From sequence record NC_054926.1: a stretch of 64,000 nt of DNA; one strand, given 5' to 3'. The stretch is from Escherichia phage vB_EcoM_OE5505. The notes beneath the pieces were generated by a model. It was given only the letters and a program-made list of their open reading frames with translations, made no database searches and was not told the DNA's origin. The translations under genes and the position numbers were made by a program. Below, piece by piece: positions 9,022 through 9,713 of this stretch (its first letter is position 1; every line of letters starts with the position of its first letter).

Positions 9022-9049
9022 GATAGGGTAATAGTATCACTACCCTATC
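9022..9049 (-). repeat. Intercistronic hairpin module (copy C)
   Basis: GATAGGGTA-ATAGTATCAC-TACCCTATC, 9-bp stem; related copies at 9321-9352 and 9651-9678. Confidence 0.6.
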
Positions 9050-9060
9050 TAAAAGTAAAC

Positions 9061-9294
9061 TTATTTTTTACGAAAAATTGATTTATTTTCTGCTGCCCAT
9101 TTTTCAATAACTGCAGCAGGACCAGTAACAACAATTTTATCACCGTAATCTTCTGCGGCGAGTTGACCGAAATTATCTAATGCATCACGAAGAACTCCAT
9201 GAGGCATTTCACCCATTTTATCTTTCTTGCCAGTGTAAATAAACTCAACTTTTACATCAGCAGTTTCAGCAATAAATTCTTGGTAAGTTTTCAT
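9061..9294 (-). CDS. Capsid-targeted internal protein (IPI-like)
   Basis: Starts MKTYQEFIAE (canonical T4 IP capsid targeting sequence) at second ATG; 77 aa. Confidence 0.8.
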   Translation of the reverse strand: MKTYQEFIAETADVKVEFIYTGKKDKMGEMPHGVLRDALDNFGQLAAEDYGDKIVVTGPAAVIEKWAAENKSIFRKK

Positions 9295-9319
9295 TTTGAT
9301 TTCCATTTGGTTTTGTTTT

Positions 9320-9382
9320 GATAGGGTAATAGTATCACAACTAAAACCCTATGTAAACAACTTTGTGAAATTATTTTAAATC
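9320..9382 (-). repeat. Cassette junction repeat (hairpin plus 33-bp 3-prime-end module, copy B)
   Basis: 33 bp 9350-9382 identical to 9681-9713; preceded by hairpin ATAGGGT...ACCCTAT. Confidence 0.65.
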
Positions 9383-9628
9383 TTCTAATCGTTTCTTCAT
9401 CTTAGAACCATTTTTAGCAATTTCTCCTGCATCGGAGCATAATGCTAAAAGTGCTTTAACTTTAGTTTGGTCTCCTTTAAAAGATGAAGGATCGACCGCA
9501 GCAGCAAGTTCTTTAATACGAGAGAAAAGACGCTCAGCTTCAGCTAAAGCCATTCCAAGCTTTACTTCCATACCGTGGGAAGATTCAGTGATAGTAGTTT
9601 TTGTAGCAAACTCTTTGAAAGTTTTCAT
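9371..9628 (-). CDS. Internal-protein-like protein
   Basis: 85 aa, starts MKTFKEFATK (CTS-like), ends EDLK like 57B; preceded by AGGAAA RBS. Confidence 0.7.
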   Translation of the reverse strand: MKTFKEFATKTTITESSHGMEVKLGMALAEAERLFSRIKELAAAVDPSSFKGDQTKVKALLALCSDAGEIAKNGSKMKKRLEDLK

Positions 9629-9650
9629 TTTTATTTTCCTAATTAATTTT

Positions 9651-9713
9651 GATGAGGTAATAGTATCACTACCTCATCAGTATGTAAACAACTTTGTGAA
9701 ATTATTTTAAATC
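9651..9713 (-). repeat. Cassette junction repeat (hairpin plus 33-bp module, copy A)
   Basis: Hairpin GATGAGGTA...TACCTCATC with compensatory changes vs copy C; 33-bp repeat covers 57B stop and 3-prime UTR. Confidence 0.65.

Follow-up and report, generated by a model that had tools for sequence, protein, structure and literature searches.

Hairpin-forming early promoters join internal-protein cassettes in a T6-type Tequatrovirus

The internal-protein (IP) array of a T-even phage raises the question of why its short genes are separated by repeated copies of one junction, and what the hairpin that each copy encodes is for. The window, i.e., the whole stretch of 64,000 nucleotides analysed from Escherichia phage vB_EcoM_OE5505 (NC_054926.1), carries an IP locus with 99.2% identity to that of phage T6, and the source phage is a Tequatrovirus. 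The 731-bp locus (8990-9720) is matched by 570 INPHARED records. On the minus strand the gene order is 57B/Acb1, ip5, ip6 and trna.4, with three junctions (J3, J2 and J1) between the genes:

10743..10750, minus strand: T4 late-promoter motif TATAAATA, inside gene 1
9702..10160, minus strand: gene 57B, Acb1 anti-CBASS phosphodiesterase (Pfam PF23474 Acb1, 2.7e-60; position as T4 57B)
9629..9701, minus strand: junction J3 (57B to ip5)
9371..9628, minus strand: ip5, internal head protein cassette, 85 aa (phrog_3499 'internal head protein', 1e-49)
9295..9370, minus strand: junction J2 (ip5 to ip6)
9061..9294, minus strand: ip6, internal virion protein cassette, 77 aa (phrog_8111, 1e-52)
9003..9060, minus strand: junction J1 (ip6 to trna.4)
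8817..9002, minus strand: trna.4 homologue, 61-aa predicted membrane protein (phrog_1692; T4 trna.4)

Gene 57B is the fixed left border of the array and was found in 36 of 36 related loci, while trna.4, a conserved small membrane ORF, is the fixed right border and is present in 34 related arrays. Judged by sequence, ip5 and ip6 fit the T-even internal proteins, as both combine the N-terminal capsid-targeting sequence MKT[YF]xEF...E (MKTFKEFATKTTITE in ip5, the canonical MKTYQEFIAE in ip6) with membership of an IP family, and the record of phage fHoEco02 has these genes annotated as ip5 and ip6. An earlier, sequence-only reading of this DNA had counted three IP cassettes; this is right for 9061-9294 and 9371-9628, but 8817-9002 is trna.4 (phrog_1692). 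Its description of 9061-9294 as 'IPI-like' must also be given up, since the gene is ip6 (phrog_8111) and its match to T4 IPI is confined to the leader. The capsid-targeting sequence is the sole part that either ip5 or ip6 shares with T4 IPI.

All three junctions carry the sequence motif of a T4 early promoter, GTTTAC-N18-TACTAT with a TG extension. Their elements, including the predicted start sites, are placed as follows:

J3, minus strand: -35 GTTTAC at 9689-9684, TG extension at 9668-9667, -10 TACTAT at 9665-9660, predicted start site A at 9653, Shine-Dalgarno (SD) AGGA at 9640-9637
J2, minus strand: -35 at 9358-9353, -10 at 9334-9329, predicted start site at 9322
J1, minus strand: -35 at 9060-9055, -10 at 9036-9031, predicted start site at 9024, SD GAGGAG at 9014-9009, containing a GGAG RegB-type motif

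When the window was searched for GTTTAC-N15-TGATACTAT, matches without mismatch occurred at the three junctions and nowhere else, and allowing up to 2 mismatches gave 6 matches against 0.27 expected. Additionally, J2 and J3 were listed by a sigma-70 scan with the TG extension present, and phage fPS-65, which is 100% identical over the junction region, has all three junctions annotated as 'predicted early promoter'. The motif also agrees with the PST/T4 consensus, TTTACW-N17-TAYWAT, of the promoters in PeSL (promoter-early stem-loop) cassettes. The late-promoter motif TATAAATA was sought within the junctions and is absent from them; the nearest one found upstream of the IP cassettes on the coding strand is that at 10743-10750. 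In a repeat search the junctions form one 71-nt family, with 61% and 86% identity to the middle copy, and J3 is identical to the T4 57B-ipI junction. The motifs, their spacing and conservation are directly visible, and the junction is best read as a compact composite regulatory cassette of 58-76 bp, of the T-even type. It runs from the upstream stop codon in an A/T-rich stretch through the -35 box GTTTAC, an 18-nt spacer and the extended -10 TGATACTAT to a start site predicted about 7 nt downstream, and then through an A-rich leader and the SD to the ATG, which in the IP genes is followed by the conserved capsid-targeting codons.

The hairpin copies that the sequence-only reading had located at 9022-9049, 9321-9352 and 9651-9678 are all present, with the arms GATAGGGTA / TACCCTATC in the first, ATAGGGT / ACCCTAT around a long loop in the second and GATGAGGTA / TACCTCATC in the third. 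That reading had overlooked the early promoter, whose -10 box the hairpin encloses. Folding of the three hairpins, which it had suggested as a check, gave -18.5, -18.1 and -17.4 kcal/mol for the sense-strand RNA, with z-scores of -4.7, -4.2 and -4.0 against dinucleotide shuffles. The hairpins have the following extents:

9650-9679: J3 hairpin, 13 bp including G.U pairs
9313-9360: J2 composite hairpin, with the 5' arm ATAGGGT 6 nt further upstream and an outer stem UUGUUU/AAACAA
9020-9051: J1 hairpin, 14 bp including G.U pairs

A chance origin of the junctions is ruled out by the repeat family, the fold z-scores and the motif count compared with expectation. The promoter spacer forms the 5' arm, the extended -10 the loop and positions -6 to about +4 the 3' arm. 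The arms thus take up the only stretches of the promoter that can vary freely, and the constrained extended -10 is left as the loop. Rfam covariance models run over 3900-10500 returned tRNAs and sub-threshold noise only, and no known RNA family.

Copies 1 and 3 differ by a change from AG/CT to GA/TC at two adjacent base pairs, with each arm altered, which bears out the compensatory changes claimed earlier for the third copy. The structural constraint on the stem that had been deduced from them still holds once more sequences are added. Among 120 sites gathered by promoter pattern alone, 15 formed 6 or more of the 7 possible Watson-Crick pairs when the register was centred on the -12/-11 step, where about 0.4 were expected. 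Arm permutation in a set of 250 loosely defined candidate sites from the window, T4 and 36 related loci gave a similar picture, as at least 5 of 7 pairs were observed in 29 sites compared with 7.9 after permutation (maximum 18, 500 permutations). These two sets are the unbiased controls for stem pairing. For 22 class-A junctions, 86.7% of cells were paired compared with 72.4% when shuffled and 35-61% when slid, a result that is partly circular because the alignment was selected for pairing; changes on both sides were seen in 9 of the 12 pairs. At least 8 unrelated stem sequences share a common dyad axis. Both conservation of the junction and structure-preserving covariation, the test that had been proposed for related phages, were found.

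The promoter-hairpin design is not confined to IP loci. Of strict T4 early-promoter motifs, roughly one in three has it, in that 10 of 33 fold at -15 kcal/mol or below compared with 1.0% of random 46-mers, and the second IP locus of T4, e-ipIII-ipII-denV, shows the same design. In the T4 cases the sense fold is more stable than the antisense fold in 11 of 12, an asymmetry that is in part forced by the promoter consensus (GTG opposite TAT). Interior mismatches are more often G.T than A.C, 12 to 4 in the unbiased set and 12 to 2 in the selected set; the excess is modest, the events are not independent, and this test for the strand under selection is suggestive only. There is also a sister class of sites, e.g., at denV and regB, in which an anti-SD in the spacer pairs with the SD of the downstream gene.

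The junction design is already known from T-even phages, having been described in 1994 and in 2010-2014 (Repoila, 1994; Arbiol, 2010; Comeau, 2014). As relayed in the two later papers, Repoila, Tetart, Bouet and Krisch (EMBO J, 1994) reported conserved intercistronic elements in two T-even IP loci, which consist of T4 early promoters and AT-rich stem-loops of variable size and flank IP ORFs with a common N-terminal leader; the elements were proposed to bring about the shuffling of IP genes. The loci, the phage group and the gene names (ip5, ip6) are the same as ours, and we see no substantive difference from the elements as those papers describe them. PeSL cassettes are known from RB49/phi1, PST/T4 and nt-1/KVP40 (Arbiol, 2010; Comeau, 2014). 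Like the junctions, they are intergenic, about 70 bp long and composed of an AT-rich upstream stop, an early promoter, a stem-loop and an SD; the stem-loop often lies between -35 and -10 or over -10, and G-T pairs have been noted in it. They adjoin indels in hyperplastic regions, for which a model of mini-circle excision and integration has been proposed (Arbiol, 2010; Comeau, 2014). J1 to J3 have the corresponding PeSL-like features, namely an early promoter with 17-18 nt spacing, a stable stem-loop within or next to it, an AT-rich stop on the 5' side, an SD and start codon on the 3' side, and indels between relatives that end in the element. However, Arbiol (2010) regarded the IP-locus elements as analogues, not homologues, of PeSL. 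The IP junctions have the T4-type -35 GTTTAC, whereas the PeSL have near-perfect sigma-70 boxes, and the stems of the junctions are AT-richer and without the G(n)/C(n) tracts of PeSL. Moreover, the PST figure legend places the stem-loops just upstream of the promoter, while the J1-J3 stems straddle the -10.

How the junctions relate to the gain and loss of cassettes can be read from a 33-bp element that occurs twice:

9681..9713, minus strand: 33-bp repeat copy 1, GAT TTA AAA TAA, TTTCACAAAGTT, GTTTAC (-35), ATA
9350..9382, minus strand: 33-bp repeat copy 2, identical to copy 1 and 331 bp away

As reported before, the copies are identical and both upstream ORFs end in DLK-stop; the bases flanking the two copies differ. 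The final three codons and stop of 57B (DLK-TAA) fall within the element, which had been taken for a 3'-end module. It is a real repeat, but after the three final codons and the stop it goes on through the A/T-rich upstream region and the -35 box of the next promoter. The idea that ip5 copied its DLK-stop from 57B was rejected, since in one related locus (L015) the ip5 homologue stands third in the array, not beside 57B, and ends in RLEDLK. This makes DLK-stop a feature of the ip5 family or a result of the constraint on the A/T-rich upstream element.

One relative, L033, lacks exactly 331 bp, namely the ip5 unit bracketed by the 33-bp repeats, and is otherwise near-identical to the window. The T4 ipI-trna.4 junction is chimeric, with its 5' half from J2 and its 3' half from J1, and two further loci (L017 and L026) have hybrid junctions whose arms do not match, and an internal duplication of 19 nt. 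The 36 related loci hold arrays of 0-5 IP cassettes from at least 12 families in varying order. As far as sequence comparison can tell, these natural variants show cassettes inserted, deleted and swapped via the junctions, and together with the literature they agree with the earlier suggestion that the recurring junction of a cassette array serves as a recombination substrate in T-even style. The junctions and the capsid-targeting codons are dispersed, near-identical homology patches of 30-110 bp, which the T4 recombination system would use for these exchanges. Many related arrays join cassettes without a junction, with overlapping ATGA or with stops 5-8 nt away, so cassette exchange can do without it. 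Internal proteins are anti-restriction effectors that are injected into the host, with a different GmrSD-type enzyme blocked by each of Ip1, Ip2 and Ip3; the shuffling of IP genes thus sets the pace of T-even escape from host defences. A single short unit that serves as promoter, as RNA structure and as homology patch neatly illustrates genome compaction, and its design may help to engineer cassette swaps in therapeutic T4-like phages. The window adds a clean natural T6-type ip5-ip6 example, with relatives differing by exactly one cassette, and no new principle.

The role of the hairpin is suggested by its geometry. The predicted start site lies inside the 3' arm; therefore, transcripts from the junction's own promoter would lack the hairpin, and the complete hairpin would form only in RNA reading through from upstream. 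Early promoters further upstream could supply such RNA, and so could, at late times of infection, the late promoter at 10743-10750, whose transcripts would read through 57A, 57B and the IP cassettes carrying complete hairpins. In read-through RNA the hairpin would stand directly 3' of the upstream stop codon, and it most likely acts there as an intercistronic stem-loop, which would shield the upstream cistron from 3' exonucleases and might alternatively or additionally attenuate and insulate read-through. The start sites, the read-through and any 3' ends at the hairpins are predictions from sequence, and a literature search for T4 transcript-end maps gave no usable map. An action at the RNA level is favoured because the sense folds are more stable, G.T mismatches outnumber A.C mismatches and a sister class with anti-SD pairing exists. 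The earlier proposal of an RNA processing or stability element is plausible in this light, and an RNA stabiliser or attenuator is the role we favour. Taken as a whole, the junction is in our judgement quite probably a promoter cassette, a hairpin for read-through RNA and a homology patch for recombination in one.

A possible but clearly less probable alternative, which is the reading of the PeSL authors, is that the hairpin is a transcription terminator or attenuator and that each cassette is mainly under its own promoter. It would fit the placement right behind the upstream stop codon, and Arbiol (2010) found that the stem-loop of RB49/phi1 PeSL211/210 cut lacZ expression about as much as rrnB T1 and that stem-loops mostly lie between -35 and -10 or overlap -10. 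However, the same study describes the T-even IP-locus stem-loops as weaker and more AT-rich. The stem tails (CAAAAC, CUACUAC and CAAAAUU) have no U-tract and a terminator scan of both strands gave no terminator-like site at the junctions, which rules out an intrinsic (Rho-independent) terminator. A strong terminator would also cut off the read-through from 10743-10750 on which late IP expression for packaging seems to depend. For the other IP-like array in the window the phage uses a GC-rich terminator of canonical form with a T-run, and it thus has such terminators at its disposal where they are wanted.

In T4 e, soc, 49 and I-TevI, the ribosome-binding site (RBS) is hidden in a hairpin of the read-through RNA and freed on transcripts that start inside the hairpin. 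The junctions resemble these genes in having a promoter inside the hairpin and transcript classes that differ by the 5' arm, and denV, regB and several trna.4-type junctions in related phages do show the RBS-hairpin feature. For J1-J3 an RBS-occluding hairpin was rejected, as the stems end 5-10 nt upstream of the SD and leave it uncovered, and the internal promoter is early, not late. The lack of a U-tract and the uncovered SD leave both classical termination and translational occlusion unsupported for J1-J3.

We consider it rather unlikely that the palindrome acts as DNA, i.e., as a hot spot of recombination that focuses breaks and exchanges at cassette borders in an attC-like manner. Once extruded, or folded in single-stranded form, it would be a target that phage enzymes such as endonuclease VII or gp46/47, or another recombinase, could cleave or bind. 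Breakpoints do fall within junctions, even in the loop, which gives the hybrid arms of L017 and L026; one mini-circle crossover was mapped to the loop of a stem-loop and a DNA-binding protein was speculated upon (Arbiol, 2010); and, as in attC, conservation extends to the structure but not to the sequence. Nevertheless, as DNA the hairpins have little stability (-8 to -10 kcal/mol, with arms of 7-11 bp and loops of 10-18 nt), which makes extrusion unlikely, and sense-strand mismatches that favour G.T are unexpected for a two-strand cruciform. Homologous recombination over the 33-110 bp repeats is enough for the variants, and the same hairpins occur at the conserved single-copy genes 41, motB and regB, where no shuffling is seen. 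Integron attC arrays are similar in their short ORFs, 60-70 bp imperfect palindromes with structure conserved over sequence, and cassettes that are gained, lost and reordered, and circular intermediates have been proposed for the phage elements as well (Arbiol, 2010). Unlike integron cassettes, each IP unit has its own promoter, exchange is explained by homologous recombination and the hairpin is found at non-cassette genes too. No integrase is known from Tequatrovirus.

It is also improbable, to a like degree, that promoter-embedded hairpins are a general T4-type RNA-level switch marking transcript origin, or structure-specific recombination sites. The former would mean that read-through (including late) and locally initiated RNAs of one gene differ in decay, processing or translation, and the latter would make the IP loci an integron-like cassette system without integrase. 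An observation that belongs to the switch is that a stem with its 5' arm upstream of the motif's own start site is encoded by roughly one in three strict early-promoter motifs.

There is still less reason to think that the inverted repeat tunes the promoter, through melting of the -11/-12 fork, promoter escape or a palindromic operator by which a regulator turns early promoters off. In its favour, the dyad axis seen most often falls exactly between -12 and -11, where the open-complex bubble has its upstream edge, and the 3' arm is G+C-rich at the discriminator position. This dyad position is, however, expected from the smallest loop that encloses the constrained TGnTAnnnT, other registers exist in which the dyad is shifted upstream by 3 nt or downstream by 2-8 nt, and about two thirds of strict T4 early-promoter motifs do without a stable hairpin. 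An operator for one repressor is ruled out, as stems differ within the genome (J1, J3) and number at least 8 unrelated sequences.

Mutation by templated correction of quasi-palindromes has been documented in T4, and the junction copies are clearly homogenised by recombination (33-bp identity, shared loop), but that the complementarity is functionless and kept by such mutation plus gene conversion among promoter copies is the least credible account, since it leaves unexplained the consistent placement around the promoter -10, the class that pairs specifically with SD sequences and the enrichment at 30% of promoters compared with a 1% background.

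All genes of the locus lie on the minus strand, in the following order:

10387-11112, minus: gene 1 (dNMP kinase)
10157-10387, minus: 57A
9702-10160, minus: 57B (Pfam Acb1)
9371-9628, minus: ip5 (85 aa, phrog_3499)
9061-9294, minus: ip6 (77 aa, phrog_8111)
8817-9002, minus: trna.4 (61 aa, phrog_1692)
8419-8817, minus: trna.3-like gene

Several Tequatrovirus genomes, Yersinia phage PYps5T and Escherichia phage YUEEL01 among them, match the 2.1 kb surrounding the junctions at 100% identity, and phage T6 shares 99.2% identity with the window over the 731-bp internal protein (IP) locus. 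The names ip5 and ip6 were taken from the public record of a near-identical phage. T4 carries only one gene, ipI, at the equivalent position, and the similarity of IPI to ip5 and ip6 is confined to the N-terminal capsid-targeting leader. A sequence-only reading had proposed three IP cassettes here. While ip5 and ip6 are IP genes, the leftmost ORF (8817-9002) is trna.4 and not an IP gene. The gene at 9061-9294, described as IPI-like, matches T4 IPI in its leader but not in the rest, and is ip6.

The recurring junction, with hairpins and a repeated 3'-end module, was placed correctly at every coordinate when the sequence was re-checked, and a repeat search groups the junctions ip6/trna.4 (J1), ip5/ip6 (J2) and 57B/ip5 (J3) as a single repeat family. 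Two adjacent base pairs distinguish the stem at 9022-9049 from that at 9651-9678, with both arms altered each time, and the middle copy has a shorter stem of 7 bp and a long loop. Folded as sense-strand RNA, the three hairpins reach -18.5, -18.1 and -17.4 kcal/mol (z-scores -4.7, -4.2 and -4.0), compared to only -8 to -10 kcal/mol as DNA on either strand. The 33-bp blocks 9350-9382 and 9681-9713 are indeed identical. They do contain the end of the upstream gene (GAT TTA AAA TAA, three codons plus the stop), but continue through an A/T-rich stretch into the -35 box of the promoter that follows.

Along the transcribed strand, GTTTAC is followed in all three junctions by 18 nt and then TACTAT, itself preceded by TG. 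This arrangement is the T4 early-promoter motif, and the hairpin is therefore part of a promoter. A pattern search of the window for GTTTAC-N15-TGATACTAT gave zero-mismatch matches at J1, J2 and J3 only; with up to 2 mismatches allowed there were 6 matches, where chance would give 0.27. J2 and J3 also appear in a sigma-70 scan. The record of phage fPS-65, whose 731-bp IP locus is 100% identical, annotates a 'predicted early promoter' at the equivalents of 9029-9060, 9326-9358 and 9657-9689. The 5' arm of the hairpin occupies the spacer separating -35 and -10, the loop holds the extended -10, and the 3' arm runs from directly past the -10 to about +4. The earlier interpretation is supported with two corrections, namely that the junction is a promoter and that the leftmost ORF does not encode an IP.

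Transcription would start at the A 7 nt past TACTAT (9653, 9322 and 9024), in all cases within the 3' arm. RNAs from a junction's own promoter would therefore be unable to form the hairpin, which only RNAs derived from upstream could do. No late-promoter motif was found within the junctions; the closest one upstream on the same strand is at 10743-10750, within gene 1. As packaging of IPs requires their late synthesis, the hairpins are probably present in late IP mRNA, which would arise by read-through.

The comparison set comprised 36 related loci fetched via 57B, T4, and 120 further sites found via the promoter pattern alone. The junction proved conserved in this material, and its stems covary. 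J3 has an exact counterpart in the T4 57B-ipI junction. The design recurs in the second T4 IP locus, e-ipIII-ipII-denV, where the stems are unrelated and measure 8 and 13-14 bp; at denV the spacer is paired with the Shine-Dalgarno (SD) sequence through an outer 9-bp stem. Among all strict promoter motifs, three stem registers are prominent. In the commonest, the dyad lies between -12 and -11, which is simply the smallest hairpin able to surround TGnTAnnnT. In the second, which includes J2, the 5' arm is moved upstream, and in the third a spacer anti-SD pairs with the downstream SD.

Two controls are independent of our own selection. In a pool of 250 loosely defined candidate sites from the window, T4 and the 36 related loci, 29 sites had at least 5 of 7 Watson-Crick pairs, compared to 7.9 when the 3' arms were permuted (maximum 18, 500 permutations). 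The 120 pattern-only sites show a bimodal pair count, with 15 sites at 6-7 of 7 pairs against about 0.4 expected. Aligned class-A junctions (22 in number) have 86.7% of their cells paired (72.4% when shuffled, 35-61% in slid registers), and changes on both sides occur at 9 of the 12 pairs; since these junctions were chosen for pairing, they illustrate the effect rather than prove it. The same position is held by at least eight unrelated stem sequences, such as ATAGGGTA, ATGAGGTA, AGGGCTAT, AGGGTTAT, TAGGACTA, GTAGGGATA, GACAAGACTA and GGGACCA.

The main alternative to a function in RNA is that the hairpin acts in recombination at the DNA level. The evidence leans towards RNA without being decisive. 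The sense RNA folds more stably than the antisense in 11 of 12 T4 cases (by 5.9 kcal/mol on average). Among interior mismatches, G.T outnumbers A.C, 12:2 for the class-A set and 12:4 when helices were located by an unbiased finder, but the promoter consensus itself (GTG opposite TAT) dictates part of this asymmetry, and the events are non-independent. The SD-pairing class can only be meaningful in RNA. The junction hairpins lack a U-tract and gave no matches in a terminator scan; those of J1-J3 end 5-10 nt before the SD, and no Rfam family was matched. We favour an RNA-level role as an intercistronic stabiliser or attenuator on read-through transcripts.

That IP cassettes are shuffled by recombination at the junctions, as had been suggested, is supported by natural variants and the literature. 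The near-identical locus L033 (98.2% upstream, 99.9% downstream) lacks exactly 331 bp, the spacing of the two 33-bp repeats, and with it ip5 and one junction. The T4 ipI-trna.4 junction is J2 in its 5' half and J1 in its 3' half, joined within the common GTGATACTATTACCCTATC core. Two further relatives, L017 and L026, have hybrid junctions in which the two arms no longer fit each other; L017 carries a 19-nt duplication within a junction, and the J2-type stem of L026 (ATGGGGT/ACCTCAT) looks partly re-compensated via a G.U pair. Across the 36 loci, 57B and trna.4 flank 0-5 IP cassettes of at least 12 families in variable order, and the ip5, ip6 and other families occur in first, middle or last place. 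Many neighbouring cassettes have no junction, their stop and start codons overlapping or abutting, and the junction thus assists cassette exchange without being essential.

Such elements have been tied to IP loci before, and our junction finding is therefore a correct rediscovery of something already known (Arbiol et al., 2010; Comeau et al., 2014). Promoter-early stem-loops (PeSLs) were defined in RB49/phi1 as ~69-bp elements with an upstream stop codon, AT-rich region, early promoter, stem-loop and SD; one stem-loop lowered lacZ expression to a similar degree as rrnB T1, and mini-circles arise from PeSL x PeSL recombination (Arbiol et al., 2010). As cited there, the IP-locus elements of Repoila et al. 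(1994) have T4 early promoters and weaker, AT-richer stem-loops, and are considered analogues rather than homologues of PeSLs. PeSLs were later extended to the PST/T4 pair with the promoter consensus TTTACW-N17-TAYWAT, and the link to IP loci was restated (Comeau et al., 2014).

The hairpin marks a class of early promoters of which the IP junctions are members and not unique. In 118 kb of T4 there are 33 strict early-promoter motifs, of which 10 reach -15 kcal/mol or below in the 46 nt downstream of the -35 box; the promoters preceding genes 41, motB, regB, cd.3 and frd.2 are among these 10. Of random T4 46-mers, only 1.0% fold this stably (binomial p about 1e-12). A spacer anti-SD pairs with the downstream SD at regB, denV and the trna.4-type genes of four relatives (L003, L008, L019, L034), and this class was located in a T4 segment (L038; T4 62797 and 65413) and several related loci. 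Here, translation would be masked on read-through RNAs but not on promoter-proximal ones. Non-IP promoters in T4 segments L039/L040 (T4 146143 and 166807), in front of frd.2 and in the ndd.4-ndd.6 region, also have the J-type 3' arm and start region TACCCTATCAA, although the site at 166807 lacks the matching 5' arm. This suggests a dispersed promoter family exchanging segments. The T4 record describes 133300-133313 (L040 13300-13313) as 'inverted complement of previously reported sequence; corrects the early promoter'. This is exactly the loop of the cd.3 promoter hairpin (arms GGTAGAG/CTCTACC), and may reflect either an artefact of the older sequencing or a true flip between inverted repeats. 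Many IP genes and 57B (window, L002-L037) end in [L/I/V]-K-stop (DLK, YLK, GIK, WVK, WLK, ILK), coded by TTAAAATAA-like sequence, and these codons appear to supply the promoter that follows with its A/T-rich upstream element as well.

Elsewhere in the window, a second array of IP-like genes with capsid-targeting leaders (phrog_2280; MKSYTQFLNEA... and MKTYAEFLTEA...) lies at 4088-5340, minus strand, with e on one side and the tRNA genes on the other. The position is beyond the two classical IP loci, contrary to the reported absence of IP genes outside them (Arbiol et al., 2010). Its repeated junction differs in kind, being a canonical terminator, CTTAGCCCCGACCGAAAGGTTGGGGCTTTTT, in two copies (about 5333-5303 and 4771-4741), with a late promoter, TATAAATA, at 5289-5296 after the first copy. 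The first gene is frameshifted by one extra T at 5150-5151 (AAATTATTCC, compared to AAATATTCC in L033). Apart from this T, L033 shows 100% identity across 1239 nt, and it encodes an intact 157-aa protein. The frameshift means either a pseudogene or an error in sequencing. The second copy (4088-4650) is split into two ORFs in different frames, 4330-4650 and 4088-4333, covering profile positions 1-95 and 101-178. In the tRNA region, 7406-8025 (HNH-motif ORF 7410-8042, 210 aa) and 6522-7041 (161-aa ORF 6532-7017) are both missing in L033 and are probably homing-endonuclease insertions. Directly downstream of gene e, an early promoter with hairpin AATTGTGA/TCACAGTT at 56-85, minus strand, matches the T4 e-ipIII junction, which places the second IP locus just past the left edge of the window.
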